Shown piece after piece: positions 14,597 to 56,642 of a stretch of 60,237 nucleotides of DNA. Origin of the DNA: Gemmatimonadales bacterium (GTDB lineage Bacteria; Gemmatimonadota; Gemmatimonadetes; Gemmatimonadales; GWC2-71-9). Location: the NCBI GenBank assembly GCA_045803245.1, contig JBJMPK010000228.1, positions 1 to 60,237 on the forward strand, given 5' to 3'. Under the pieces are notes generated by a model, which ran no database searches, was not told the origin of the DNA, and was given only the letters and a program-made list of their open reading frames with translations. A program made the position numbers and the translations under genes. Position 1 is the stretch's first letter. Each line of letters opens with the position of its first letter.

Positions 14597-14602
14597 AGAG
14601 AC

Positions 14603-14683
14603 TATTGGCTATTGGCTGTGAGCTATTGGCTGATCGGTGCACGGAGTAGCCCATAGCCCATAGCTAATAGCTCTTAGCTATGC
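14603..14683. repeat. Inverted pair of heptamer arrays (TATTGGC)n / (GCCCATA, GCTAATA...)n
   Basis: Left arm 14603-14637: tattggc tattggc tgtgagc tattggc tgatcgg. Right arm 14649-14683: gcccata gcccata gctaata gctctta gctatgc. The arms are near reverse complements. The pair fills the OMP-helicase intergenic gap. Confidence 0.9.
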
Positions 14684-19526: not shown

Positions 19527-20756
19527 ATGGAGCACACCTATTTCCGCAAAGGTTTCGGCCTCAAGAACCAAATCGCCGGCCGGCTCACCGCCGATTATCA
19601 CAGCGCGGTGGTCGAGGCGTTCCGGGGCAATGATTATCGGCTCGTGGCCGGAGGCCTGACTTTCCGCCTGGCGCGCGAGTTCGGCTTCTGTTATGGGGTG
19701 GACCGGGCGGTCGAATACGCGTACGAAACCCGCACCAAGTTTCCTGAGCGGCGGATCTTCCTGGTTGGGGAGATCATCCACAATCCGCATGTGAATGAAA
19801 AGCTCCGCCACATGGGGATCACTCTTCTGGCGCACCACGCCGACAGGGAGTTCGATTTCAGTGTGGTCACGCCCGACGACGTGGTCATCATGCCCGCTTT
19901 TGGCGTGACAATCGGGGATTTTCAGCGGCTTCGGGGCATTGGCTGCATTCTGGTAGACACCACCTGCGGCTCGGTATTGAATGTTTGGAAGCGGGTCGAG
20001 AGCTACGCCAGAGATGGGTTCACCGCCATCATCCATGGGAAACACTATCACGAAGAAACCAAAGCCACCGCCAGCCAGGTCATGAAGTACCCCGGAGGCC
20101 GGTATCTGGTGGTCTTCGACATGGCCGAAGCTCGCAAGATCTGCGACTTCATTGAAGGGGGAAGCGATCTCGCCGGTCTCGAAGCCCGGTTCCGCCAGGC
20201 GGTCTCCCCCGGCTTCGATTTCTCCCGGGATCTGACCCACGTCGGCCTGGCCAATCAGACGACGATGCTGTCGGGCGAGTCGCTGGCCATCGCCGAGGAG
20301 GTACGGAAGAGCATCGTCCGCCGTTACGGCGCCGAAGTGCTCGACCAGCATTTCCGCTCGTTCGATACGATCTGTTCCGCCACTCAGGAGCGGCAGGACG
20401 CGGTGCTGGCGCTGCTGCGCGAGCCGCTCGACCTGATGATCGTCGTCGGGGGGTACAACTCCAGCAACACCTGCCACCTCGCGGCGTTAGTCCAGCAGCA
20501 TGGAGTCTCCGCCTTTCATATCGAAGACGCGGAGGGAATCGACGTCGCCACCGGTACCATCCGCCATCAGCCGATCGGGACCAAGAGCGAAGTGGTGGAG
20601 GAAGCCTGGTTGGGTAACGCGAAGGTCATCGGCATTACCGCCGGTGCTTCCACGCCGAACAACAAGGTGGGCGAGACTATCGCGCGGATCAGCGCGGTGG
20701 CGGGAGTGGAGGCGGAACTGGGCTCGGCATTAGAAGGCGCGAAAGGTGAACAGTGA
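19527..20756 (+). CDS. ispH: 4-hydroxy-3-methylbut-2-enyl diphosphate reductase, long (about 400-aa) form
   Basis: GFCYGVDRAV, VDTTCGSV, ANQTTM and ICSATQERQ motifs, including the three conserved Cys contexts of IspH/LytB. Confidence 0.9.
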   Translation: MEHTYFRKGFGLKNQIAGRLTADYHSAVVEAFRGNDYRLVAGGLTFRLAREFGFCYGVDRAVEYAYETRTKFPERRIFLVGEIIHNPHVNEKLRHMGITLLAHHADREFDFSVVTPDDVVIMPAFGVTIGDFQRLRGIGCILVDTTCGSVLNVWKRVESYARDGFTAIIHGKHYHEETKATASQVMKYPGGRYLVVFDMAEARKICDFIEGGSDLAGLEARFRQAVSPGFDFSRDLTHVGLANQTTMLSGESLAIAEEVRKSIVRRYGAEVLDQHFRSFDTICSATQERQDAVLALLREPLDLMIVVGGYNSSNTCHLAALVQQHGVSAFHIEDAEGIDVATGTIRHQPIGTKSEVVEEAWLGNAKVIGITAGASTPNNKVGETIARISAVAGVEAELGSALEGAKGEQ

Positions 20757-20766
20757 ACGGTAAACA
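20746..20766. repeat. Heptamer array gtgaaca gtgaacg gtaaaca
   Basis: Three 7-nt units. The ispH stop TGA (20754-20756) lies inside the second unit. The array ends 6 nt before the next ATG. Confidence 0.85.
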
Positions 20767-20772
20767 GGTCGC

Positions 20773-24532: not shown

Positions 24533-25018
24533 ATGATAGCTAGCCCTTGGATCCGGACCGTGGCGCTGATACCTCTGCTCGGCTGCACCCCACTGGGATT
24601 CTGGGTGTATGGCGACCCGGTGGTGAGCGTTTCCCGGGTTACGCTACGACTCGAGCGCCTGAGATACCGGGGGGAATCGCCTGTCGTGGTGGCCCTCGCG
24701 GTGGAGAATCCCAACGATTACGCGCTATCCAGCGAGCGAGTCGAGCTTTCCCTCCGGCTCGACGGCGTGCCCATCGGGAAACTCAGGCGGGACAGTACGG
24801 TGCCGGTCGAGATGGCAGCGGTCTCAACCCTGGCGTTGGCCGTGCCGTTGGAGAAGCAGGCCACTCCCGAGCATCTGGCGGCGCTGGGCTCGGGCACCCA
24901 CAGCTTCGCGGTGCGGGGACGCGCTACCTTCCGGACTCCATTTGGGATGCGAAAGGTGCGTTTTGAACAAGAAGGCGCGATGAAATTCGGCGGGCGAATC
25001 ACCGATTCAGTGCCGTAG
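24533..25018 (+). CDS. LEA type-2 (NDR1/HIN1-like) domain lipoprotein
   Basis: Signal and lipobox ALIPLLGC. Beta-sandwich LEA_2-like pattern (VALAVENPNDYALSSERVELSLRLDGVPIG). 12-nt convergent overlap with the dnaE2 3' end. Confidence 0.55.
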   Translation: MIASPWIRTVALIPLLGCTPLGFWVYGDPVVSVSRVTLRLERLRYRGESPVVVALAVENPNDYALSSERVELSLRLDGVPIGKLRRDSTVPVEMAAVSTLALAVPLEKQATPEHLAALGSGTHSFAVRGRATFRTPFGMRKVRFEQEGAMKFGGRITDSVP

Positions 25019-28000
25019 TCTGGCCTGGACTCGTTCCAGGCGATCCAGCCGGGTAATAGTAAGGGTCACCACTCCAAACTCCTGCTCCACCTTTCCTCGA
25101 AAGATGAACGGTCCCTGGTCGAACAAGACGTGGCCGCGTTCCCGATAGATCCGGGGGAAGAGTACCGCCTCGATCAGTCCGTGACCATCATCGAAGGTGG
25201 CAAACTCCATCGGCTCCTCGTTCTGCGTGTGTACCGGCTTGGCGGTCGTGAGCATGCCGGCCGCCAGGATATGCCGGCCCACGTGACGGTGCAGATCGGT
25301 GCTTCGGCACAGACGAAGCCGCCGGATATGATCGGCGTGGAGCTGCATCGGATGCGCATCGGTCATGAACCCCAGCGCTTGGTACTCTTCCCTGCGGCGG
25401 CGCTCGGGGGAGTACTCCTTGAGAGTTGGAACCGCAGCAGGTAGTTGACTGAACCAATCGTCCAATGGAGCTTCGGCCCCTTCGCTGCACTCAGGGTGAC
25501 AATCAACAGACTCGTCTCTAAACCGCCCCGCCGCCCCGCCGCCCCGCTGCCCCGCTGAATCCACCATCCACAGCATCATCGGCCGGGTCCACCCCTGCGC
25601 GATCGAATCGAGGGCGCCGACCTTGATCAGAAGACGCAGATCTGATGGAGCGATGCCGGTGCGCGCCCGGAAGTCGAAGATGCTTTGGTACGGATGCGAA
25701 GGTGCACGGTCGGTCCAGCCGTCCGCCCGTCCGCCCGTCCGCCCGTCCACCCGCGCAGCGAACACCCGCTCCACCGCGTCCGCCGACAGCCCCTTCACGA
25801 ACTGCAATCCAATCCGGATCTCTTTCCCCTGACCGGTGCAACGGAACTCACTGGCGTTGACATCAGGCGGGAGGATGGTGAGGCCCATCCGCATGGCTTC
25901 CGCTATATACGCGAACGGCTGATAAAACCCACCACCGTTCGACAGCACCGCCGCCATGAACTCCGCCGGATGATTGGCCCGGAGAGCGCAGGCATGCTGC
26001 GCGATCTGGATATAGGAGCACGAGTGTCCTTTGCAGAAGCTGTACCCCGCAAACGACATGATCATCTCCCAGACCTGCTTGGCCGCATCCGGAGCGCGGC
26101 CCAGACGCGCTGCCCCGGCGAAGAATTCCTCCGCATACGCGGCGAGGTGCTTAGTCGGGCGCTTCTTGGAAAGCGCCTTGCGGAGCCCATCGCCTGTGGC
26201 AGGCGACATTCCGGCAAACGTGGCACAGACGTTCACCACGTCCTCCTGGTACACCATGATCCCGAACGATTCGAGGAGGGTGTCCCGCAGCGATGGATCG
26301 AGCGGCTGGTACGGCTGTTTGTTGCGCAGTCGCTCGAGGTAGATGTGTATGTACTTGTTCGACGCCGGACGGATCATGCTGGTATTGAGGACCAGCAGCT
26401 CGAAGGTATCCGCCTGGCTTCTGGCGCAGAGGAGGCGGGAGGCCGGAGATTCGGTGTAAAAAACCCCCATGGTTTGGCCGGTGCGGAACAGAGCCTTGGC
26501 TCCCTCGTCCTCGCCCGCCTCCGCTGAGGTGTAGTCAATGCGATGACTTGTGTTCCCATGCACCGCCGCGATGGCGTCGCGAATCACTGCCAGCGACCGA
26601 TTTCCCAGGAGATCGATCTTCACCAGCCCGGCATCCTCGGTGCCGTCTTTCTCGAACTGAATGACCGGCACCTGGAGATCGGGATCGTCGCTCAGCTGCT
26701 TGGCCGCGGGCTCCACCGGTACGTAATCGGTGAGCGGCGTCGGCGTGATCACCACCCCCCCGGCATGGACCGACAAGTGACGCGGGATGCCAACCAGACT
26801 CTCGGCAGACCGGGCATACTCCTGCCAGGCGGCCGGCAGGCTGAGTCCCCGAAAGTTGGGATGACTCGCCACTAAATCCGGTAGCCGCGCGCCGGTCTCA
26901 TAGAAAAAGGGGATACGCCGCGTCACCTCCCGAATCTCGCCGGCCGGGCGGCCATGCACCTTGGCCACCTCCCGGAGAGCTCCGCGGGGCTGAAAGGTGT
27001 TGTGGTTGGCCACCATGGCAGCATGCAACCGGGGATACCGGCGAAACACGTACGCCAGCACCTTATCCCGCTCGTCCCAGGGAAAATCCAGATCGATATC
27101 GGGCGGGTCACGCCGCTCGAGATTGAGAAAACGCTCGAAGACGAGCTTGGATCCGATCGGGTCCACGTGCGTGATGCCGAGACAGTAGCTTACGACCGAA
27201 TTGGCGACCGAGCCTCGCCCGCAGTGAGTGGGGCCGTTCCGGACAATGTCACGAACCACCAGGAAGTAGTCGGCAAAACCCTTCTGAGCGATGACCCCGA
27301 GCTCCAGGTCGAGCCGCTGCTGCAGCTCCCGGGTGATGACGGGATAGCGCCATCGAGCGCCATCGAGGGTCAAGCCGCGGAGCTGATCGAAGGCACCCGC
27401 GGTGTCGGCCATACGAGGCGGCACGATACGGTTTCCGACCGGAATCTGATAGCGGCATCGCTCCGCGATCTGGGCCGCGGCGAGAATGGCCTCGGGACAA
27501 TCGGGGAAGTGGCGCGCCAGGTCGGGGGTGGAGCAGAGCCAGGCACCGGTGGGCCAGACTGCTTCGGACGGTAGCGCCGATAGCGTGGTGTTCAACGCAA
27601 TGGCGCGAAGCAGGCGGTGTCGGCTCCACTGCTCCGCCTGCGCCGCCACGACGCCGTTGGTGGCGACAACCGGCAGCCGGAGCCGGCGTGCCGCGGCGAG
27701 CACCGCGTGTCGCTCGCGTCCGGGCCGGAGCTCCGCGTAGAGATTCTCCGGGCCACTCAGGCGGAGAACCTGCTCCAGGAAACCCGGGTTGCGCGAGAGA
27801 AGGATGAGGCCATCGCGGTCGTGCGCGAGGAGGGAGGGCAGGCGGACGGGCGTCCGCCAGTGAATTGCGGTGATCGCTCGACACAAGGCCGCCCACCCGC
27901 ATTCATTGGACGCTAATGCCACCACTTCCTGGTCATCTACGACGAGATGGGCCCCCAGTATGGGCCGTACACCAACAGCGGCACAGGCGCGCTGAAACTC

Positions 28001-28138
28001 CACCGCGCCATAGACGCCGTTGGTGTCGGTGCAGGCGAGGGCAGGGAACCCCTGGCTGGCCGCTGCCTCAGCCAGAGCCTCGGGACTCGAGACGCCGATG
28101 CCGAAGGAGAAGTGGGAGTGGACGTGAAGGTGGATCAT
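25007..28138 (-). CDS. dnaE2: Error-prone DNA polymerase III alpha homologue (DnaE2/ImuC)
   Basis: PHP-domain start MIHLHVHSHFSF (Met11 of the track ORF). Pol III alpha core (GRGSVANSVVSYCLGIT, DIDLDF). About 1040 aa, no tau/beta-binding C-terminal extension, OB-fold C-terminus. Confidence 0.85.
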   Translation of the reverse strand: MIHLHVHSHFSFGIGVSSPEALAEAAASQGFPALACTDTNGVYGAVEFQRACAAVGVRPILGAHLVVDDQEVVALASNECGWAALCRAITAIHWRTPVRLPSLLAHDRDGLILLSRNPGFLEQVLRLSGPENLYAELRPGRERHAVLAAARRLRLPVVATNGVVAAQAEQWSRHRLLRAIALNTTLSALPSEAVWPTGAWLCSTPDLARHFPDCPEAILAAAQIAERCRYQIPVGNRIVPPRMADTAGAFDQLRGLTLDGARWRYPVITRELQQRLDLELGVIAQKGFADYFLVVRDIVRNGPTHCGRGSVANSVVSYCLGITHVDPIGSKLVFERFLNLERRDPPDIDLDFPWDERDKVLAYVFRRYPRLHAAMVANHNTFQPRGALREVAKVHGRPAGEIREVTRRIPFFYETGARLPDLVASHPNFRGLSLPAAWQEYARSAESLVGIPRHLSVHAGGVVITPTPLTDYVPVEPAAKQLSDDPDLQVPVIQFEKDGTEDAGLVKIDLLGNRSLAVIRDAIAAVHGNTSHRIDYTSAEAGEDEGAKALFRTGQTMGVFYTESPASRLLCARSQADTFELLVLNTSMIRPASNKYIHIYLERLRNKQPYQPLDPSLRDTLLESFGIMVYQEDVVNVCATFAGMSPATGDGLRKALSKKRPTKHLAAYAEEFFAGAARLGRAPDAAKQVWEMIMSFAGYSFCKGHSCSYIQIAQHACALRANHPAEFMAAVLSNGGGFYQPFAYIAEAMRMGLTILPPDVNASEFRCTGQGKEIRIGLQFVKGLSADAVERVFAARVDGRTGGRADGWTDRAPSHPYQSIFDFRARTGIAPSDLRLLIKVGALDSIAQGWTRPMMLWMVDSAGQRGGGAAGRFRDESVDCHPECSEGAEAPLDDWFSQLPAAVPTLKEYSPERRRREEYQALGFMTDAHPMQLHADHIRRLRLCRSTDLHRHVGRHILAAGMLTTAKPVHTQNEEPMEFATFDDGHGLIEAVLFPRIYRERGHVLFDQGPFIFRGKVEQEFGVVTLTITRLDRLERVQARLRH
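25523..25554. repeat. Octamer array ccgccccg x3 + ctgccccg inside dnaE2
   Basis: Four 8-nt units read directly. They encode SAGQRGGGAAGRF in the dnaE2 frame. Confidence 0.9.
25719..25750. repeat. Octamer array ccgtccgc x3 + ccgtccac inside dnaE2
   Basis: Four 8-nt units read directly. They encode DGRTGGRADGWTDR in the dnaE2 frame. Confidence 0.9.
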
Positions 28139-28148
28139 ACCCAACAGC

Positions 28149-28193
28149 GTGAGCGGGAAAAGACACAACGTGAGCGGTGAGCGGCCCGCTCAC
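28149..28193. repeat. Composite GTGAGCG element with terminal hairpin
   Basis: gtgagcg (28149-55), 14-nt spacer, gtgagcg gtgagcg (28170-83), gcc, cgctcac (28187-93). The last two units form a 7-bp hairpin. Lies between the hydrolase stop and the dnaE2 start. Confidence 0.85.
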
Positions 28194-28199
28194 GCTGTG

Positions 28200-28997
28200 T
28201 CACTTCCCGCTCAGGCTGTCCAGAAACTCATCGAGTATTCGGTTGAATTCATCCGGCTTGTCCAGCTGGATCCAGTGGCCCGTTCCGGCCACCACGCGGT
28301 GGGGGAATCCGTTTCCCAGACGATGGAGGCTGAACGCCTGATCGTTATATGGTGTGACCACCGATAGCTTGGGCCCTTGGTACCGGGCCAGCGAGGAATC
28401 GGGGTCGAACTGCATCACACTCCGGAGGACCGGCAGAACTGTTTCCCGGGGGGTGGCCCGGAGATCTGCGAGGAGCCGGCTTCGGACCGTGCTGTCGGGT
28501 CCGGCTATTTCAGTCCAATACTTCTGGCTCCCGCGGTCGTAGTCCAACTCGAACCCTTCCAGAAACGACTGGATATCGGACGGGGGAATCGCCTTGCTGT
28601 CTCCAATGGGATCCACCAGCAGAAGCCCAGCCACACGGCCCGGATGGTTGCCGGCATACACCAGCGCGGCGCCCCCACCCATACTGTGGCCTACCAGGAC
28701 GAACTGCTGAAGGCCGAGAGAGTTGGCCACCGCGCTGACATCACTGGCCATGGCATCGATTGAATAGTCTCCGTTTCTGGCCGGCTCAGACCGGCCGTGT
28801 CCCCGGAAATCGAAGGCGATGGCGCGGCGCTGTGGCCGCAAGCGCTCCAGCTGCGCCTTCCACTGCCTTGTGTTGCCCGCCACAGAATGCACCAACACGA
28901 CCGGCAAATCTCCCCCTAGCTCGGCAGGGGGACCGCCGTCGTCGACGACCAGGGTTCCTGCCGGACCTACGACCCGAATACCCCGCTCACCGCTCAC
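28200..28997 (-). CDS. Alpha/beta-fold hydrolase
   Basis: 265 aa. HSVAGN oxyanion region, nucleophile elbow GHSMGG, C-terminal His context GTGHW. The proposed GTG start lies within a repeat unit. Confidence 0.8.
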   Translation of the reverse strand: MSGERGIRVVGPAGTLVVDDGGPPAELGGDLPVVLVHSVAGNTRQWKAQLERLRPQRRAIAFDFRGHGRSEPARNGDYSIDAMASDVSAVANSLGLQQFVLVGHSMGGGAALVYAGNHPGRVAGLLLVDPIGDSKAIPPSDIQSFLEGFELDYDRGSQKYWTEIAGPDSTVRSRLLADLRATPRETVLPVLRSVMQFDPDSSLARYQGPKLSVVTPYNDQAFSLHRLGNGFPHRVVAGTGHWIQLDKPDEFNRILDEFLDSLSGK

Positions 28998-29018
28998 GCT
29001 TTTCTCTCCCGCTTACGC
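28984..29018. repeat. Heptamer array cgctcac cgctcac + degenerate units
   Basis: Covers the tag stop (TGA, 28987-89 on minus) and the hydrolase GTG start (28995-97). Confidence 0.85.
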
Positions 29019-29553
29019 TTTGGTACGACCAGGCAGGCCGCTGCTTCAGGATCGACGGATACACGGGACAGCGCTTCACATGGGCCCCAGGCAGATACCC
29101 GATGCTCATGAGAAACTCGCCTACAATCTCGCCGCCGGTAAAGCGAAACGTTTGCTTGAAGAGCTTGACCCACTCTTCCTTCGAGCGAGGATGATGCGCG
29201 GCCAGCCACGCGGCGAAGGAGCGGTGCGTTTTCCGAAGCTCGAGAATGCGCTGGGCATTGGCGATAGCGGCGTCGACCTTGAGCCGGTTGCGAATGATCC
29301 CCGCATCGGCCAACAGCCGCTTGCGGTCGGCAGCGCCATAGCAGGCTACGATGTCGGGATCGAATCCATCGTAGGCCCGCCGGAACGCCTCCCGCTTCTT
29401 GAGAATGGTGAGCCAGGAGAGACCGGCCTGATTGATTTCCAGCACCAACCGCTCGAACAGCGCCGAGTCATCCTCGAGCGGGAAGCCGTACTCGTGATCG
29501 TGGTAGGGTCCGTGCCACTCATGACCTGGTGCGGCATCGCAGTAGGTGGTCAT
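28987..29553 (-). CDS. tag: DNA-3-methyladenine glycosylase I
   Basis: HDHEYGFP, LFE.L.LE..QAGLSW..IL.KR..FR and FRFTGGEIVGEFLMSIG match the Tag family. The tail SVSGREKRER is repeat-encoded. Confidence 0.9.
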   Translation of the reverse strand: MTTYCDAAPGHEWHGPYHDHEYGFPLEDDSALFERLVLEINQAGLSWLTILKKREAFRRAYDGFDPDIVACYGAADRKRLLADAGIIRNRLKVDAAIANAQRILELRKTHRSFAAWLAAHHPRSKEEWVKLFKQTFRFTGGEIVGEFLMSIGYLPGAHVKRCPVYPSILKQRPAWSYQSVSGREKRER

Positions 29554-29555
29554 AG

Positions 29556-29658
29556 TATTGGCTATTCGCTAAGGGCTGTTGGCAAAGCTATATGTAGCAG
29601 ATATCTCATTGTTCGCGCTGTAGCCAATAGCCAATAGCCAATAGCCAATAGCCAACAT
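29556..29658. repeat. Inverted pair of heptamer arrays (TATTGGC-like x4) ... (CCAATAG x4 + ccaacat)
   Basis: Left arm 29556-29583: tattggc tattcgc taagggc tgttggc. Right arm 29624-29658: four perfect ccaatag units running into the qor ATG (29657). Fills the divergent tag/qor intergenic region. Confidence 0.9.
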
Positions 29659-30634
29659 GCGTGCTGTGATCTACGAGGGAGCAGGAGGCCCCGAAGTCAT
29701 CACCATCGGCGAAGTGCCCAAGCCCGAAGTGGGCAAGGAGCACATCAGGGTAAAGGTTCACGCCGCGGGATTGAACCGGGCCGACTTGATTCAGCGGCGG
29801 GGCCACTACGCGGCGCCGCACGGCTGGCCGGCGAACATCCCGGGCCTCGAATACGCCGGCGAAGTCGAAGCGGTCCGTCCCGGCGTGACTCGCTGGAAGG
29901 TGGGCGACCGGGTGATGGGACTCGTTGGCGGAGGTGCCCAGGCGGAATTTGTCGTCGTGCACCAGGATGAGGTGTTTCCCATTCCGGCGGGATTGACGTA
30001 TCAGGAAGCTGCGGCGATTCCCGAGGCATTTCTCACTGCCTATGATGCCCTGGTAACTCGGGGCCGGCTCCAGTCGGGTGAGCGAGTGGTGATCCACGCC
30101 GCCGGAAGCGGGGTGGGGACCGCCGCCTCGCAGGTGGCCAAGCAGCTCGGCGCCACGGTGCTCGGAACATCCCGCAGCGGCGACAAGCTGGCCCGGGCTC
30201 TGGTCTATGGCCTCGACGTCGGGATCGACGTTAGCCGGACGCCTTTTCGCGACGCAGTCGGCGAGCCCGTCGATGTGATTCTCGACGTACTCGGCGGACC
30301 CGCCTTTGCCGACAACCTGGCGGTGCTCGCGCAGCGGGGGCGGCTGGTCCTGCTGGGTTTCCTGGCCGGCAGCCGGACCGAAGCTGACCTGGGACCGCTT
30401 CTCGGGAAGAGACTCGAGGTCATCGGCACCGTCATGAGGACTCGTGGTCATGAGGAACGAGTTGCACTGGTCCGCGAGTTCAGTCAGCGAATGCTGCCGC
30501 TGTTCGAGCCCCGCGAGGGAGGGGCAACTCTCCGTCCAGTCCTGGAGCGAAGCTATCCGATGACTCAACTGGCGGAGGCGCATCGGGTTCTCGAGGATAA
30601 CGCCAGCTTCGGAAAGATCGTCGTCGTCTGGTGA
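29657..30634 (+). CDS. qor: NAD(P)H:quinone oxidoreductase (zeta-crystallin/MDR family)
   Basis: 325 aa. MDR pattern: N-terminal GroES-like part, Rossmann motif VVIHAAGSGVGTAA, C-terminal FGKIVV. Confidence 0.8.
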   Translation: MRAVIYEGAGGPEVITIGEVPKPEVGKEHIRVKVHAAGLNRADLIQRRGHYAAPHGWPANIPGLEYAGEVEAVRPGVTRWKVGDRVMGLVGGGAQAEFVVVHQDEVFPIPAGLTYQEAAAIPEAFLTAYDALVTRGRLQSGERVVIHAAGSGVGTAASQVAKQLGATVLGTSRSGDKLARALVYGLDVGIDVSRTPFRDAVGEPVDVILDVLGGPAFADNLAVLAQRGRLVLLGFLAGSRTEADLGPLLGKRLEVIGTVMRTRGHEERVALVREFSQRMLPLFEPREGGATLRPVLERSYPMTQLAEAHRVLEDNASFGKIVVVW

Positions 30635-31911
30635 GGGGGGAGCGGTGAGCGGTGAGCGGTGAGCGGGCCACCCCGCAGCGCTCCAGCGCCGTATCGATCA
30701 CGAATACGGTCGAGGGCGTGCTGAAGGGCGGACGGTCGGACGGTCGGACGGTCGGAGGAGGTCACGGCAAGGTCTCCCATTGCCTGTCCGCCGGTACGCC
30801 CGTCCGTCCGTCCGCCCCACAGCTCCAGCTGCGTCTCCCCTTCCATCAGTCGGTCCAATGTGAGCGACACCGACCGGACCGCCAGGCGCTTGGTATTGGC
30901 GAGCGCAAAAGCACGTCGCGCGGCGTCCCATAGCTCGGTATCCAGCACCGCGGCATTGAGCGGCAGGGCTCGAGCTGTGGCGGTATAGTCGGCATACGTC
31001 GCCTCCAGCCGGAGCTGTCCCGCGACCAGGCCACGCGCACGCACCCGACGTCCGAGACGCTCGCTCAGGGCACGAAGTAGCGGATGCAGGATGCCGAGGT
31101 CGTTGGTGTCGGTAGCCAGAGTGTGGACCACATAAAATTCCCTCTGGCGCTCGGGTGGCAGCACTGGCCGCGGGTCGATGCCCCGGGCCCGGGCCCGAAG
31201 TATCCGGCCACTGCGGCCGAAGACAGCACATAACGCGTCTTCGTGAATGGCGGCGATTTCTCCGATGAGATCGAGCTGATAATCCTCCAGTCTCTCGCGC
31301 ATGCGTGGATCCAGCTCCGGGAGCACCTCGATTGGATGAGGAGCCAGAAAGCTCCGTTCGTTGCCGAGGGGGACGCACAGTAATTCGGAACCGGCTTGCC
31401 CCCACCCGCTACGCGGGTACCCGGCCCGTCCGACTATCCACCGGTCTGCCCGAATCGCCGCCTGACTCACAAGCTTGTTGGCCGCGACCCCAACCGACAG
31501 AGGCAACCCCAGCCGCTCGCTTGCCTCCCGCCGGATCCGTGCGGCGACGTCTTCGGGAGGACCGAAGAGGCGGCCGGTTCCGGTGAGGTCGAGGAAAGCG
31601 TGACCGTAGCCCCGCGGCTCGATGGCCGGCGCGTAAGCCCGTAAGATCTCGTGCAGCGCACGAGAAGCCCGAGCATAGAGCCTTGGGTTGGGTGGCAGGA
31701 CAATGAGATCGGGACAGAGCCGCTGGGCCTTGCGGACGGCCATTCCCCGCTGGAGGCCGGCCGATCGCGCCTCTGCCGAGAGCGCGAGGATCGTGGCGCG
31801 ATCGGCGCCCGGCGGTGCCACAGCCAGAGGACGCGTTCTCAGCTCGGGCGCGACCATGCCTTCCAGGGTGGTGCAGAAGGCGGGAGGGTCCACGAAGAGA
31901 ACGGAGCGCAT
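30565..31911 (-). CDS. imuB: ImuB: Y-family polymerase homologue lacking catalytic carboxylates
   Basis: DinB-like fold (RPLAV, LCPDL, LPLSVGVAANKLVSQAA). The catalytic sites are replaced: VDMD becomes VDPP and SLDEAYLD becomes GYGHAFLD. The 3' end is uncertain; the last ~35 codons read through a repeat array and antisense qor. Confidence 0.75.
   Translation of the reverse strand: MRSVLFVDPPAFCTTLEGMVAPELRTRPLAVAPPGADRATILALSAEARSAGLQRGMAVRKAQRLCPDLIVLPPNPRLYARASRALHEILRAYAPAIEPRGYGHAFLDLTGTGRLFGPPEDVAARIRREASERLGLPLSVGVAANKLVSQAAIRADRWIVGRAGYPRSGWGQAGSELLCVPLGNERSFLAPHPIEVLPELDPRMRERLEDYQLDLIGEIAAIHEDALCAVFGRSGRILRARARGIDPRPVLPPERQREFYVVHTLATDTNDLGILHPLLRALSERLGRRVRARGLVAGQLRLEATYADYTATARALPLNAAVLDTELWDAARRAFALANTKRLAVRSVSLTLDRLMEGETQLELWGGRTDGRTGGQAMGDLAVTSSDRPTVRPSALQHALDRIRDRYGAGALRGGPLTAHRSPLPPHQTTTIFPKLALSSRTRCASAS
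30631..30665. repeat. Heptamer array gtgaggg gggagcg gtgagcg x3
   Basis: The qor stop TGA (30632-34) lies in the first unit. The opposite strand is stop-free and is read through by the imuB ORF. Confidence 0.9.
30731..30815. repeat. Inverted pair of octamer arrays (gacggtcg x3) ... (ctgtccgc cggtacgc ccgtccgt ccgtccgc) inside imuB
   Basis: Left arm 30731-30754, right arm 30784-30815. Translated in the imuB frame as GGRTDGRTGGQAMGDLAVTSSDRPTVRPS. Confidence 0.9.
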
Positions 31912-31926
31912 GAGATACCAAAAAAC

Positions 31927-32015
31927 GTGAACAGTAAACGGTGAACGGTGAACAGGATTGATGTCAGGGATTTTCGTGGAATCCCCCTGTTAACTGTTCA
32001 CCGTTCACGGTTCAC
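31927..32015. repeat. 89-bp imperfect palindrome of GTGAACR heptamers with inner hairpin
   Basis: Left arm 31927-31954: gtgaaca gtaaacg gtgaacg gtgaaca. Right arm 31988-32015: tgttaac tgttcac cgttcac ggttcac. Inner stem GGGATT (31967-72) / AATCCC (31980-85). Lies between the VOC stop and the imuB start. Confidence 0.9.
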
Positions 32016-32349
32016 TCTTATCTGACCACACGGCCAGCTCGTTGCCGCTAGGATCGGTAAAGTGGAACCGCCGGCCACCGGGAAAGCTGAAGATGGGCTT
32101 TACAATGGTGCCCCCGGCCTGGCTGACCTGTTGCTCCATGGCCTCGAGATCAGCCGCATAGATGATCACCAGCGGGCCGCCGGGTCGAACCTTTTCTTGC
32201 GTCTGGAAGCCGCCGCTCAGCCGGCCATCGGCGAAGCTGGCATAGTCGGGCCCGTAGTCCTCGAAGGTCCAGCCGAATGCGCTGCCGTAAAACTGCTTTG
32301 CCTCCGGCACGTTCTGGACGGAAAACTCGATGTAATCGATGCGGTTCAT
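32005..32349 (-). CDS. VOC/glyoxalase-bleomycin-resistance family protein
   Basis: 114 aa. IDYIEF.V.N...A..FY..AFGW.F and FHF.DPSGNELAVW are typical of the single-domain VOC fold. 4-nt overlap with the radical SAM gene. Confidence 0.75.
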   Translation of the reverse strand: MNRIDYIEFSVQNVPEAKQFYGSAFGWTFEDYGPDYASFADGRLSGGFQTQEKVRPGGPLVIIYAADLEAMEQQVSQAGGTIVKPIFSFPGGRRFHFTDPSGNELAVWSDKSEP

Positions 32350-33734
32350 AACAGTATTGCCTGCTCGTTTGCGGGGTCAGGACTGGGGTTGGACTGCGCG
32401 GCAGCTTCCATCCGCCGCCGGCGTCTATAATTCGCTTCATCGCCCCCAAAGCCAAATGCGGTTCGCAGGGCGTTGAGCCGGCGAGTAAGGGCCTCCTGAT
32501 AATCCTGACTGGCCAAATCACTTCGGGCGTAATGTCGCCGATACCGCTCGGCCAATTGTGGAAACTCTTTCTCGAGGACGGGAAGAAAGCGATGTCGCGC
32601 CGCGGGACCGAGCCGGAGCGCCGACCCGATGACATAGCGTGCACCCGCCTCCTTCGCCGCCTCGATCAGCCGGGCTAATCCAGCCCAGTCATCGGTGATC
32701 CCGGGAAGGATCGGGGCTACTATGAGCCCCGCATGGACGCCCCCTTCAATGAGCCGTCGCAGCGCCCGCAGCCTAGCCGACGGCACGGGGGATCGGAGCT
32801 CCAGCCGGCGGGCGAGCCCCGGATCGGCCGTGGCGAGCGAAATGTTCACACTCATTTCGTTCCGTTCCGAAATCCCCCGTAGGAGATCCAGATCTCGGGT
32901 GACGAGGGGAGACTTGGTGATAATCTCGATCGATAGTCCGTGATAGGAACGCAAGACCTCGAGAATTCGACGGGTGAGCTGGAACTTCCGCTCCGCCGGC
33001 TGATAGGGATCGGTGGCGGTGCCGATGACCAATGAGTGACCGGCTACCCGCGCAGGATTGAGCGTGCGCGCAAGCACCTCGGCGACCCCCGATTTGACCA
33101 GGATCTCCTTTTCGAAGGCCTCCCAAGGCGGCAGGCGGCCGACCGACTGTCCGCCCGTCCGCCTGCCCGCCCGCTCCATCACCCACCGATGCGTGTCCCG
33201 GGCGTAACAGTAGGTGCAGCCGAACTCACAGCCGACATACGGGTTGATCGACCAGAAACCCATGCCGGTAGAAGCCGGCGTGTTGAGGACGGAGCGCACC
33301 GGCAACCCGATGAAGCTGGTGCCTCGGGAACGTTGGTCCAGAACCGGCAGCGGGGCAGCGGGGCTGCGGGGTAGTATCAGCGTTTCTGGGAAGAGATCGG
33401 CCGGTAGGTCGATTTGCTTCCCTGCTGCCCCGCTGTCCCGCTGCCCCGCTTTCACCCGCACAGCCCCCACCCACACTGAGTGCAGCTGATACATCCCGAA
33501 GAGCGGACGAGCAGGCCTGCGCATTCGGGACATTTGCCCAGTGGCTTGGTAGCGTTGCTGCCCTGCAAGGTCGGCTGGGTGGGAAGTGGAGTGGGGTAGG
33601 TCTGATATGGCGACACGGGAGTCCCCCGATCTTCTTCGGTCTTTATTCGGTACGCTATCCGAATATAGGCCGAAGCTCAGGGGGACGTCAAGATGCCCAA
33701 ATAGAGGATGGGCCTTCCAGGCCATTGACCCCAC
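32346..33734 (-). CDS. Radical SAM protein, SplB-like (COG1533, 'DNA repair photolyase' type); start uncertain
   Basis: SINPYVGCEFGCTYCYAR carries the CxxxCxxC radical SAM cluster motif in the context typical of this family. The N-terminal ~100 codons of the track ORF may not be translated. Confidence 0.75.
   Translation of the reverse strand: MGSMAWKAHPLFGHLDVPLSFGLYSDSVPNKDRRRSGDSRVAISDLPHSTSHPADLAGQQRYQATGQMSRMRRPARPLFGMYQLHSVWVGAVRVKAGQRDSGAAGKQIDLPADLFPETLILPRSPAAPLPVLDQRSRGTSFIGLPVRSVLNTPASTGMGFWSINPYVGCEFGCTYCYARDTHRWVMERAGRRTGGQSVGRLPPWEAFEKEILVKSGVAEVLARTLNPARVAGHSLVIGTATDPYQPAERKFQLTRRILEVLRSYHGLSIEIITKSPLVTRDLDLLRGISERNEMSVNISLATADPGLARRLELRSPVPSARLRALRRLIEGGVHAGLIVAPILPGITDDWAGLARLIEAAKEAGARYVIGSALRLGPAARHRFLPVLEKEFPQLAERYRRHYARSDLASQDYQEALTRRLNALRTAFGFGGDEANYRRRRRMEAAAQSNPSPDPANEQAILL
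33147..33170. repeat. Octamer array ctgtccgc ccgtccgc ctgcccgc inside the radical SAM gene
   Basis: Read directly. Encodes AGRRTGGQSVGR, located just after the CxxxCxxC motif. Confidence 0.85.
33417..33456. repeat. Octamer array cttccctg ctgccccg ctgtcccg ctgccccg ctttcacc
   Basis: Read directly. Lies in the 5' region of the radical SAM ORF (KAGQRDSGAAGKQ). Confidence 0.85.
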
Positions 33735-38340: not shown

Positions 38341-38389
38341 GGGTCTAGAGTCTAGTTGCATGACCCTAGACCCTTGACCCTAGACCCTC
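38341..38389. repeat. Inverted pair of heptamer arrays (gggtcta gagtcta) / (gacccta gaccctt gacccta gaccctc)
   Basis: Read directly; the units contain CTAG. Lies between the GroES-like stop (38392) and the next gene. Confidence 0.9.
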
Positions 38390-43674: not shown

Positions 43675-43683
43675 GGCGCTGCG

Positions 43684-43704
43684 CCAATAGCCAATAGCCA
43701 CCCA
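43684..43704. repeat. Heptamer array ccaatag ccaatag ccaccca
   Basis: Read directly. Ends 2 nt before the ctaG ATG (43707). Confidence 0.8.
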
Positions 43705-45603: not shown

Positions 45604-45643
45604 GGGAAGCGGGGAAGCGGGGAAGCGGGGAAGCGGGAAGTAG
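45604..45643. repeat. Octamer array gggaagcg x4 + ggaagtag
   Basis: Four perfect 8-nt units immediately upstream of the start codon at 45599 (minus-strand gene). Confidence 0.95.
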
Positions 45644-45748
45644 ACGATCGGCCCTCTTCACGAGACCTCCATTCGGCTGTTGGACTCCAGCAACTCGGGG
45701 GAGAACATACGCCAATGTGCGGCCTGCGCCAATGAACGTCGCTGCTCT

Positions 45749-46594
45749 CTACTTCCCCGCCTCCCCGCTTCCCCGCTTACCCACTACCCCGCCTCCCAGC
45801 CAGGCCCCGCCATCCACCACCATGATCGCACCGGTAATCCACTCTCCGGCTGGGCTGGCCAGGTAAGTCACCATCTGGCCGATGTCCTCGGGCCGTCCCC
45901 AGCGGCCCAGCGGGATCGAGTCGGCGGCGTACCTCTCCATTCCGAACAGATCCGGCCCCGCGCTGCCGGAAGGGGTAAAGGCTTTCTTCACACCCTCGGT
46001 GGGGATCGGACCGGGCGCCACGGCGTTGACTGTGATGCGATCTGGAGCCCACTCGAGCGCCAGGGTTCGCGTGAGCGCATCCACGCCGGCCTTGGCAGCA
46101 GTGGCGTGCGCCATCAGCGGCCAGCCGCGGTAGTGCAGCGTCATCGAGATCGAGACGATGCGGCCGGCGCCTTGCGCCTTCATGACGGGATAGACCGCCT
46201 GGCTGCAATAAAAGGTGCCGTATAGGTCGGTTTCGATTACCGCTTTCCATCCGTTGGAAGAGAGCGTGGCAGTGGGTGCATAGAAGTTTCCGGCGGCGTT
46301 GTTGACCAGGATGTCCAGCCGGCCGTGCTCTTGTGCCACCCGGTCCACCATGCGTGACACCGATTCCGGCTCTCGTACGTTGACTTCAATGGCGCTCACC
46401 TTGGCTCCGCTCGCGCGCAGCTGCTCCGCCGCCGGGGCGAGATGCTCCGGCTTGCGGCTTGCGATGGCCACCGACGCTCCCGCCCGCGCCAGTGACGACG
46501 CGATGCCCAGGCCTATGCCAGTCCCCCCACCCGTGATCAGGGCTACCTGGCCCGCCAGCACATCCGGCCGGAAGACGCTGGCCGGTTGGCTCAC
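45749..46594 (-). CDS. Short-chain dehydrogenase/reductase (2,4-dienoyl-CoA/enoyl-CoA reductase-like)
   Basis: ITGGGTGIG cofactor motif and an SDR core. 4-nt overlap with the upstream crotonase gene. Confidence 0.8.
   Translation of the reverse strand: MSQPASVFRPDVLAGQVALITGGGTGIGLGIASSLARAGASVAIASRKPEHLAPAAEQLRASGAKVSAIEVNVREPESVSRMVDRVAQEHGRLDILVNNAAGNFYAPTATLSSNGWKAVIETDLYGTFYCSQAVYPVMKAQGAGRIVSISMTLHYRGWPLMAHATAAKAGVDALTRTLALEWAPDRITVNAVAPGPIPTEGVKKAFTPSGSAGPDLFGMERYAADSIPLGRWGRPEDIGQMVTYLASPAGEWITGAIMVVDGGAWLGGGVVGKRGSGEAGK
45752..45797. repeat. Octamer array cttccccg cctccccg cttccccg cttaccca ctaccccg (reverse complement of the 45604 array)
   Basis: Read directly. Overlaps the last 15 codons of the SDR gene (GGVVGKRGSGEAGK*). 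Confidence 0.9.
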
Positions 46595-56092: not shown

Positions 56093-56581
56093 TCAGACGC
56101 TCCGAGCGGCGACCGGTACCGGGACCTGATTCAGGCCCAGCCAGTACCTACCAATAGCCTGTATGGCTGCCCGGAACTCCTCGTGTCGGACTGGTTTCTG
56201 AACGCAGCTATTGGCGCCGAGCTGGTAGCATTGAGCCAGCTCGCGGGGATCGTTGGATGAGGTAAGGACAACGACTGGCGCCATGCTGGTGCGGGCGTTG
56301 GCCCGCAGGGCACCGAGAACCTCTAAGCCGTCCACCTTGGGGAGCTTGAGGTTCAACAGCACCAGCCGGGGCACCGGCGCCCCGGAACGATGTCGAAAGG
56401 CGCCCCGGCCAAGAAGAAAGTCCAGCGCCTCCTCACCATCACGAACCACTTCTATCCGGCCGTCGGGATACAGCTCATGAAGCGGCTTGACTGTGAGCTC
56501 TACATCCAGCGCACTATCCTCGACCAGGAGGATGTCGGTAGGCAGCGCGACAGCGGGTAAGCGGGTAAGTTCGGCGCTCAC
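56093..56581 (-). CDS. Stand-alone CheY-like response regulator
   Basis: ILLVEDS, LVLLNLKLPKVDG and VQKP are receiver hallmarks. GTG start in a GTGA overlap with the kinase stop. Confidence 0.8.
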   Translation of the reverse strand: MSAELTRLPAVALPTDILLVEDSALDVELTVKPLHELYPDGRIEVVRDGEEALDFLLGRGAFRHRSGAPVPRLVLLNLKLPKVDGLEVLGALRANARTSMAPVVVLTSSNDPRELAQCYQLGANSCVQKPVRHEEFRAAIQAIGRYWLGLNQVPVPVAARSV

Positions 56582-56642
56582 GACGATGATGCGCCGTTAC
56601 TACCCACCTGCTTCCCCGCTTCCCCGCCGACCCGCTTACCTG
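56553..56642. repeat. Inverted octamer arrays (gcgggtaa x2) ... (cttccccg x2, ccgacccg, cttacctg) spanning the kinase/regulator junction
   Basis: Left arm 56553-56568, within the regulator 5' codons. Right arm 56611-56642, within the kinase 3' codons (AAAGKRVGGEAGKQVG). Confidence 0.85.

Follow-up and report, generated by a model that had tools for sequence, protein, structure and literature searches.

Inverted octamer arrays in the predicted docking tether of an ImuB-like polymerase from Gemmatimonadales

The DNA analysed here, hereafter the window, is a stretch of 60,237 nucleotides from a Gemmatimonadales bacterium (GenBank assembly GCA_045803245.1, contig JBJMPK010000228.1, positions 1 to 60,237 of the forward strand). 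Its minus strand carries a gene for a catalytically dead, ImuB-like DNA polymerase of the Y family, and within that gene, in frame, two arrays of 8-nucleotide units face each other as an inverted pair. An earlier note, based on the sequence alone, had described this block as an intergenic-type palindromic element tolerated inside imuB. The features concerned are listed below, the polymerase first and then its parts in the order in which the minus strand is read.

30565-31911, minus strand: open reading frame (ORF) of 448 amino acids encoding a catalytically dead, ImuB-like Y-family DNA polymerase (Pfam, NCBIfam, alignment to DinB structures)
30817-30831, minus strand: predicted beta-clamp-binding motif QLELW, residues 361-365 (orthologue alignment and match to Mycobacterium smegmatis ImuB)
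30784-30817, minus strand: G-rich arm, 5' in the sense strand, with octamers GGACGGAC / GGACGGGC / GTACCGGC / GGACAGGC, coding GGRTDGRTGGQ (direct reading, Tandem Repeats Finder (TRF), inverted-repeat search)
30757-30783, minus strand: spacer or hairpin loop region, coding AMGDLAVTS (inverted-repeat search and RNA fold)
30729-30756, minus strand: C-rich arm, 3' in the sense strand, 3.5 perfect copies of the sense unit GACCGTCC, coding SDRPTVRPS (TRF)
30664-30729, minus strand: putative RecA-NT-like motif ALQHALDRIRDRYGAGALRGGP, residues 395-416 (invariance among orthologues, DUF4113, hhalign)
30630-30666, no strand assigned: heptamer array (GGTGAGC)5.3, read through on the minus strand, where it gives PLTAHRSPLPP within the ORF tail of the polymerase (TRF; kept in close orthologues)

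The Y-family fold of the product is supported by the Pfam families IMS (E 4e-38) and IMS_C (E 8e-12) and by alignment to solved DinB structures, while every NCBIfam Pol IV model scores under its cut-off for the 448-residue ORF. In the same structural alignment, the catalytic carboxylates are missing: VDMDAF is replaced by VDPPAF, and SIDEAYLD by GYGHAFLD. The replacing residues (P9, P10, G103 and H104) are invariant in 120 of the 120 close orthologous proteins that we aligned, all from Gemmatimonadales and 72-89% identical. The motif QLELW stands directly after the little finger, with Q361, L362 and W365 invariant in the same 120 sequences. In M. smegmatis ImuB, the clamp motif is 352-QLPLW-356 and the RecA-NT begins at residue 360, three residues away (PMC11791113); QLELW matches this pattern and is thus a predicted clamp-binding site. 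The sequence after the block is ALQHALDRIRDRYGAGALRGG, in which Q397, A399, D401 and I403 are invariant among orthologues, and the residue pattern of ALQHALDRIRDRYGAGALRGGP fits the RecA-NT-like motif described by Timinskas and Venclovas (PMC6511836). The fragment gives a weak match to Pfam DUF4113 (E 0.018, under the cut-off, profile positions 2-20), and the orthologue profile of the motif aligns to E. coli RecA residues 9-31 with an hhalign E value of 4e-4 at a probability of only 35%.

The ImuB-C domain (about 100 amino acids) is absent: only 32 residues follow the RecA-NT-like motif and they have no Pfam match. Neither imuA or imuA' nor any RecA/ImuA-like gene is present in the gene cluster. 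With ImuB-C missing, and imuA missing from the cluster, the gene is ImuB-like and not a canonical imuB. An exact-product look-up of the 448-residue ORF returned no identical product on record. No stop codon follows the RecA-NT-like motif, and the last ∼32 residues are encoded by the (GGTGAGC)n heptamer array and the antisense of a convergent oxidoreductase gene, which the polymerase ORF overlaps by 70 nucleotides; the first unit of that array supplies the stop codon of the oxidoreductase gene, TGA (30632-30634). Since the ORF tail runs through the array and into this gene, the functional C-terminus of the polymerase may lie nearer to the block than the ORF length implies. The tail (30565-30666) appears 'conserved' in orthologues, probably because of the oxidoreductase gene on the opposite strand.

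The block itself was confirmed by direct reading of the sequence. Three exact copies, (GACGGTCG)3, lie at 30731-30754, and TRF delimits the array as 30729-30756 (period 8, 3.5 copies, 100% match). Facing it at 30784-30815 are four degenerate octamers, CTGTCCGC CGGTACGC CCGTCCGT CCGTCCGC, that are complementary to (GACGGTCG)3 and that TRF reports as a degenerate array at 30782-30817 (period 16, 2.2 copies, 80% match). The right arm is thus perfectly homogenised in the allele of the window, and the left arm is degenerate. The translation of the block, GGRTDGRTGGQAMGDLAVTSSDRPTVRPS, is exact and in frame, and forms residues 366-394 of ORF 30565-31911 on the minus strand. Both the facing arrays and their in-frame translation are therefore as the earlier note had them. 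It had also proposed 7-bp stems in the mRNA; a repeat search joins the arms into a single long interrupted hairpin that goes well beyond such stems, with 37-nucleotide arms at 30720-30756 and 30787-30823 that are 81% complementary and 30 nucleotides apart. The sense RNA of 30720-30823 (minus strand) folds with -66.6 kcal/mol, compared to -44.9 ± 4.1 kcal/mol for 200 dinucleotide shuffles (z = -5.3), none of which was as stable. At up to three mismatches, the 24-mer of (GACGGTCG)3 has no occurrence in 100 dinucleotide shuffles of the window and three matches in the window itself: two are overlapping registers of the block (30723-30746 and 30731-30754), and the third is a related array in a DnaE2-like polymerase gene (25724-25747).

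We then compared the region between the clamp motif and the RecA-NT-like motif, hereafter the tether, which the block occupies, in 163 orthologous loci retrieved as DNA (80 genomes, 80 metagenome contigs and three look-ups). The tether is 8-49 amino acids long in the 120 close orthologues, and its column conservation is 0.20, compared to 0.89-0.94 in the domains. In 139 in-frame loci of Gemmatimonadales it measures 18-384 nucleotides (median 90), i.e. 6-128 amino acids, compared to 3 amino acids in mycobacterial ImuB. The block is therefore an insertion relative to the mycobacterial protein with its 3-residue spacing (PMC11791113). It lies where the protein varies most (8-49 amino acids, conservation 0.20), and it does not align to conserved residues of homologues that lack the repeats: orthologues with similar peptides also carry arrays. 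Both points agree with what the earlier note had expected of an inserted segment.

Arrays of 7-9-nucleotide units are common at this site. At least one is present in 88 of 141 in-frame tethers (about 60%): 35 tethers have arrays in both arms, 37 in the G-rich arm only and 16 in the C-rich arm only, and 53 have none. We find at least eight unit types, i.e. AAGCGGGG, AGCGGGGC, ACAGGCGG, ACGGGCGG, AACGGCGG, CGGGCGGT, the 9-mer AAGGGCGGT and the 7-mer AGTTCCG. Each differs by 0-1 mismatch per unit from the reverse complement of its partner arm; the unit changes from species to species, and the partner follows. The spacer start CAGCACACC is common to alleles with GGGGAAGC arms and to alleles with GGGGCAGC arms, which indicates that the two arms changed together while their site stayed the same. 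Arrays occupy this site across species of 56-89% identity, with turnover of the unit, and the block is therefore not a recent arrival. The pairing is also reflected in the folds: 31 of 64 tethers have z < -2, compared to 5 of 64 equal-length control segments of the same gene (mean z -2.4 versus -0.2). In brief, the tether is the main length-variable segment of the polymerase, it carries arrays in many species, and its arms stay complementary through unit turnover.

Between close relatives, arms are lost and spacers are resized, while the frame into the RecA-NT-like motif stays intact. In the closest relative (locus L082, 89% amino acid identity), the flanks are nearly identical, the left arm is (GGGGAAGC)3, the right arm is missing and the RecA-NT segment has diverged; this comparison indicates a putative recombination tract bounded by arrays (30664-30816 of the window). 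The next relative (L081, 86%) has the same arms as the window and a spacer that is 33 nucleotides longer. An automated scan found the clamp and RecA-NT-like motifs in one frame in 139 of the 163 loci and inspection added three with motif variants, which brings the in-frame loci to about 142 of the 148 that could be evaluated; about 75 of them are short-read contigs. In four loci (L032, L045, L062 and L069) the frames of the two motifs differ, and the C-terminal region is frame-disrupted in two more (L020 and L076). All six are nanopore-derived genomes, and L032, examined in detail, has a shift of ∼1 nucleotide and not of a whole unit. We saw no frame-shifting copy-number variants in the short-read assemblies, and a metagenome scan contained no near-identical strains (best matches ≤79% identical). 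The hotspot for slippage or deletion proposed in the earlier note is supported by the differences from the two closest relatives.

Six contigs end inside the tether (L018, L042, L052, L061, L063 and L072), and two others (L127 and L131) are chimeric, with unrelated sequence beyond the right arm. Such breaks and chimeras are consistent with the dispersal of the units through each genome. In practical terms, the arrays also give rise to broken assemblies and wrong gene calls in metagenome-assembled genomes of Gemmatimonadales.

The block is one instance of a wider repeat class, which we surveyed with TRF in 1.16 Mb of DNA (the window plus the loci), with the position relative to ORFs taken from a long-ORF test and orthologue alignments. 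Periods 7 (220 arrays) and 8 (397 arrays) dominate over periods 6 (31) and 9 (79). Counts inside and outside ORFs were made for the window and 83 loci (the first 0.92 Mb, tether excluded). Heptamer arrays are mostly intergenic (102 outside long ORFs and 12 inside); octamer arrays lie inside ORFs in 154 cases and outside in 45, which equals the background rate (75%), and they are the commonest class within ORFs. Heptamer units include TGA or TAG, so that an array of them has a stop codon in all three frames, whereas octamer units are stop-free on both strands. The block, a stop-free octamer array within an ORF, is therefore of the coding-compatible kind and not of the typical intergenic one, and to call it intergenic-type is misleading.

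Three further properties mark this class. (i) Its vocabulary is small: the top five unit families account for 84% of period-7 arrays, 81% of period-8 arrays and 39% of period-9 arrays. (ii) Its distribution is patchy: among loci L001-L083, the close clade has 4.5-12.7 arrays per 10 kb and many lineages of 60-68% identity have about 0-1, and the density is high again in a few distant loci (L069 and L076, one of them labelled as a delta proteobacterium). (iii) Its inverted pairs are polar. Among pairs of 7-9-nucleotide arrays, 219 have the G-rich arm 5' and only 2 have it 3' (13 ties); in non-array inverted repeats of the same DNA, the corresponding numbers are 66 and 44. The pairs in the window are at 14602/14650, 30729/30799, 31927/31988, 33346/33422, 38340/38361 and 45604/45758. 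The G-first order holds on both strands because the configuration is self-complementary. We found no description of such array palindromes in Gemmatimonadota in the searchable literature, where PMC11237797 deals only with repeats of at least 80 bp. Array palindromes are apparently an undescribed, lineage-specific and fast-evolving class of DNA repeat in Gemmatimonadales. We also considered reading the units as Chi sites, given cores such as AGCGG and GAAGCGG in some of them, and dropped the idea since several unit families have no such core.

We consider it probable that the block is a mutationally driven DNA palindrome that is tolerated as the disordered tether of the ImuB-like polymerase. 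Its arrays would be made and remodelled at the DNA level, the likely processes being replication slippage inside single arms, copying or correction from arm to arm templated by the hairpin, and recombination. Selection would act as a filter only, admitting arrays with no stops, with a net length that is a multiple of three and in a disordered location. If arrays are generated in this way, the hairpin would be a by-product and not a device of this gene. The product would be a low-complexity spacer, rich in Gly/Arg/Asp/Thr and then in Pro/Ser/Arg, that alters the reach between clamp and RecA docking without being required itself. Centre-out growth of the palindrome, or its repeated re-healing at the hairpin tip, found no support because there is no mismatch gradient along the stem (mismatch density 0.94 in the inner and 0.86 in the outer halves, p = 0.59).

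Three observations weigh against this explanation or qualify it. First, the disorder of the block was judged from its variability and composition, and the low predicted local distance difference test (pLDDT) values of residues 358-396 are weak evidence of it, given that the AlphaFold2 model computed with the 120-orthologue alignment is poor overall (mean pLDDT 50, predicted template modelling score 0.26). Secondly, 27 array-poor loci (333 kb in total) have 13 period-8 arrays, 8 of which fall in the ∼480-nucleotide zone of the tether, a zone that makes up 3.9% of the sequence. The tether site is therefore unusually persistent for arrays, which may reflect extreme tolerance, a selected structure or a site-specific generator. 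Thirdly, plain slippage predicts neither the G-first polarity nor the small repertoire of units, and these two features imply a specific generating process.

Tether length matters because the block sets the distance between the predicted clamp- and RecA-docking motifs in the scaffold of a DnaE2-type error-prone polymerase system. It varies more than 20-fold among related soil bacteria, which thus offer a natural series for relating tether length to mutasome assembly.

It is possible, if doubtful, that array palindromes are the footprints of an undescribed DNA process in Gemmatimonadales that is both lineage- and sequence-specific. The orientation of the G-rich strands, which run 5' to 3' toward the centre on both strands, the few unit families and the on/off density all point to such a dedicated process. 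Stem thermodynamics are the same for both configurations, and the polarity therefore points to how the pairs are made. The pairs look as if two 3' ends had each been extended with short G-rich repeats and then joined; alternatively, fold-back synthesis from a G-rich nascent array could give the same product. Such a break-healing or template-switching activity would write palindromic, translatable low-complexity DNA into protein loops, and the ImuB-like tether would be its most persistent, possibly its founding, site. A dedicated mechanism, if there is one, would add a new route by which bacterial genomes make palindromes and disordered protein segments.

A reading that we consider unlikely is that the hairpin has been selected as a nucleic-acid structure in this gene. 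It would then, for example, stabilise the mRNA, serve as a processing site, make translation pause between the docking motifs or act as a DNA cruciform signal, and its arms would co-vary because pairing is needed. Complementarity of the arms through at least eight unit types, the CAGCACACC spacer shared by GGGGAAGC and GGGGCAGC alleles whose arms changed in concert in place, tether folds far more stable than the controls, and the persistence of octamer arrays at the tether even in lineages that have almost none elsewhere speak for such selection. However, 53 of 141 orthologues (38%) have no array, another 53 have one arm only, and the closest relative (L082) has lost the right arm. Nor does the RNA stand out: tether folds have no sense advantage over antisense (12 versus 24 loci, p = 0.11), and equal stability is as expected for a palindrome at the DNA level. 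A promoter and terminator scan of 29500-32500 found no promoters and no terminator-like sites; no U-tract follows the hairpin, which runs into CCCUUCAGC, so that it does not qualify as an intrinsic terminator. Rfam at a permissive threshold assigned no family and gave only sub-threshold matches to miRNA precursors, as any long hairpin does. Nothing points to a role at the mRNA level, sense and antisense folds being equally stable. Finally, similar inserts occur in loops of unrelated proteins, which makes a gene-specific role unlikely.

Less probable still is a recent insertion, in which the block would be a mobile palindromic element, similar to a miniature inverted-repeat transposable element (MITE) or a Rickettsia palindromic element (RPE), that moved into the gene from an intergenic site. 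The same unit families occur at many unrelated sites in many species, the DnaE2-like gene of the window has a related array (25724-25747), contigs often end or turn chimeric at arrays, as they would at dispersed repeats, and array density is patchy between lineages. Against this, no full-length element is conserved: only the 7-9-nucleotide unit is shared, and array length and spacer vary at every site. Occupation of the site across 56-89% identity, with parts of the spacer shared, argues for descent in place, and the intergenic arrays are mostly of another class, the stop-containing heptamers. We noticed neither a transposase nor a RAYT-like gene in the loci, although no systematic search was made.

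A phase-variation (contingency) switch, in which gain or loss of 8-nucleotide units would shift the frame, reversibly remove the RecA-NT motif and turn the mutasome scaffold on or off, is highly improbable. In its favour, the repeat of 8 nucleotides (3.5 perfect copies) is not divisible by three, copy number changes over evolutionary time, and the motifs are in different frames in four loci with the C-terminal frame disrupted in two more. Against it, these out-of-frame cases are all nanopore-derived, and the shift in L032 is ∼1 nucleotide and not a whole unit; about 142 evaluable loci (about 75 of them short-read contigs) are in frame, and three to four copies of an 8-mer are a poor slippage substrate compared to known contingency tracts.

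Several known systems resemble the mutationally driven, tolerated palindrome that we favour. Quasipalindrome template-switch mutagenesis is a point-mutation or short-patch process of model bacteria. Copying of one arm from the other by such template switching would keep the arms complementary without selection, and is the likely route of their concerted change, although the process is not known as a generator of palindromes built from arrays. The short tandemly repeated repetitive (STRR) sequences of cyanobacteria are short tandem heptamer arrays of few unit families in intergenic DNA. They resemble the intergenic heptamer arrays beside the polymerase gene, whereas the block has a period of 8 and is coding; we know of no description of inverted pairing or G-first polarity for STRRs. 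The tandem repeats of Borgs are likewise lineage-specific, fast-evolving and near-perfect, lie in ORFs and add low-complexity, probably disordered segments at a variable site. Within ORFs, Borg repeats reportedly have unit lengths that are multiples of three and are direct; here, by contrast, the unit has 8 nucleotides, the peptide period is 8 residues per 24 nucleotides and the arrays form inverted pairs.

The comparison with RPEs, the intragenic MITEs reviewed in PMC10969869, is mixed. As with RPEs, hairpin repeats lie in frame in several unrelated genes (the polymerase, DnaE2-like and radical S-adenosylmethionine (SAM) genes, two sites each), are translated as an extra peptide at positions that the fold tolerates and are kept at orthologous sites between species. 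Unlike RPEs, which are about 150 bp long with a conserved consensus and peptide, the repeats here share only the 7-9-nucleotide unit and have no full-length consensus with defined ends. Their arms are tandem arrays, spacer and length vary by site, units turn over at a fixed site and the G-rich arm comes first.

Canonical ImuB and the present protein are both dead Y-family polymerases that have a QLxLW clamp motif and are linked to a DnaE2-type polymerase; in the present protein, as in ImuB, a RecA-NT-like motif probably comes after the clamp motif. The present system differs in the absence of ImuB-C, in the lack of imuA or imuA' in the cluster, in a clamp-to-RecA-NT spacing of 6-128 amino acids and not 3, and in a gene order (radical SAM, glyoxalase, Y-family polymerase, reversed oxidoreductase, hydrolase, dnaE2) unlike that of the canonical imuB operon. 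The closest published arrangement is an 'inactive PolY + DnaE2 without ImuB-C', as in Streptomyces DinB2.

Further features in and around the polymerase gene are as follows.

31366-31461, minus strand: second hypervariable site of the polymerase, residues 151-182 (orthologue lengths, conservation)
31927-32015, no strand assigned: pair of intergenic heptamer arrays, (GTGAACN)4 / (GTTCACN)3, close to the polymerase gene on its upstream side (TRF; fold -46 kcal/mol, z -7.8)
25007-28168, minus strand: DnaE2-like polymerase of 1053 amino acids with octamer arrays in frame at 25523-25555 and 25713-25753 (Pfam, NCBIfam, synteny)
32346-33734, minus strand: upstream radical SAM gene of the Rv2578c family (Pfam, NCBIfam)

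The cluster (25007-33734) has a conserved order that is also found in L082 and L083: an Rv2578c-family radical SAM gene, a glyoxalase gene, the dead Y-family polymerase gene, a convergent quinone oxidoreductase gene, an alpha/beta hydrolase gene and the gene for the DnaE2-like polymerase. The last lies 2.4 kb from the polymerase gene in conserved synteny. The cluster may represent a variant mutasome or repair module that has neither imuA nor ImuB-C.

Array-type inserts recur in these genes. The second hypervariable site of the polymerase is an insertion relative to DinB structures that spans 18-48 amino acids in orthologues (column conservation 0.25); in relatives it often consists of peptides encoded by G-rich octamer arrays, such as ADRRTGGRADGRTGGQ, usually without a C-rich partner, and it is degenerate in the window. 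In the DnaE2-like gene, the G-rich octamer arrays at 25523-25555 and 25713-25753 code for SAGQRGGGAAGRF and VDGRTGGRADGWTDRAP, respectively. They mark hypervariable sites after about residues 872 (25523-25555) and 806 (25713-25753), which are array-derived in 18 orthologues, some of them with full pairs of G-rich and C-rich arms. The radical SAM gene has an in-frame array inside the radical SAM domain (33139-33173) and an array-pair hairpin at 33346-33450 (-85.9 kcal/mol, z -9.5) that belongs to the N-terminal region or the 5' leader, the start codon being uncertain. Both sites are hypervariable in orthologues, and distant relatives align without the inserts. The inserts in these two genes and at the second polymerase site therefore indicate that the phenomenon is not specific to the ImuB-like gene.

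Elsewhere in the window, two octamer pairs straddle stop codons; their arms are named here in the sense of the respective gene. In the pair at 45604-45797, the G-rich arm (45751-45797) codes for the C-terminal tail of a short-chain dehydrogenase (...GKRGSGEAGK*); in the pair at 56552-56645, the G-rich arm (56610-56645) codes for that of a histidine kinase (AAAGKRVGGEAGKQVG). The partner arm follows the stop codon in each case, and these pairs may act as inter-cistronic hairpins. Heptamer arrays of the window lie exactly at gene boundaries at 14602-14680, 20746-20767, 29621-29655, 30630-30666, 31927-32015, 38361-38388 and 43683-43700.

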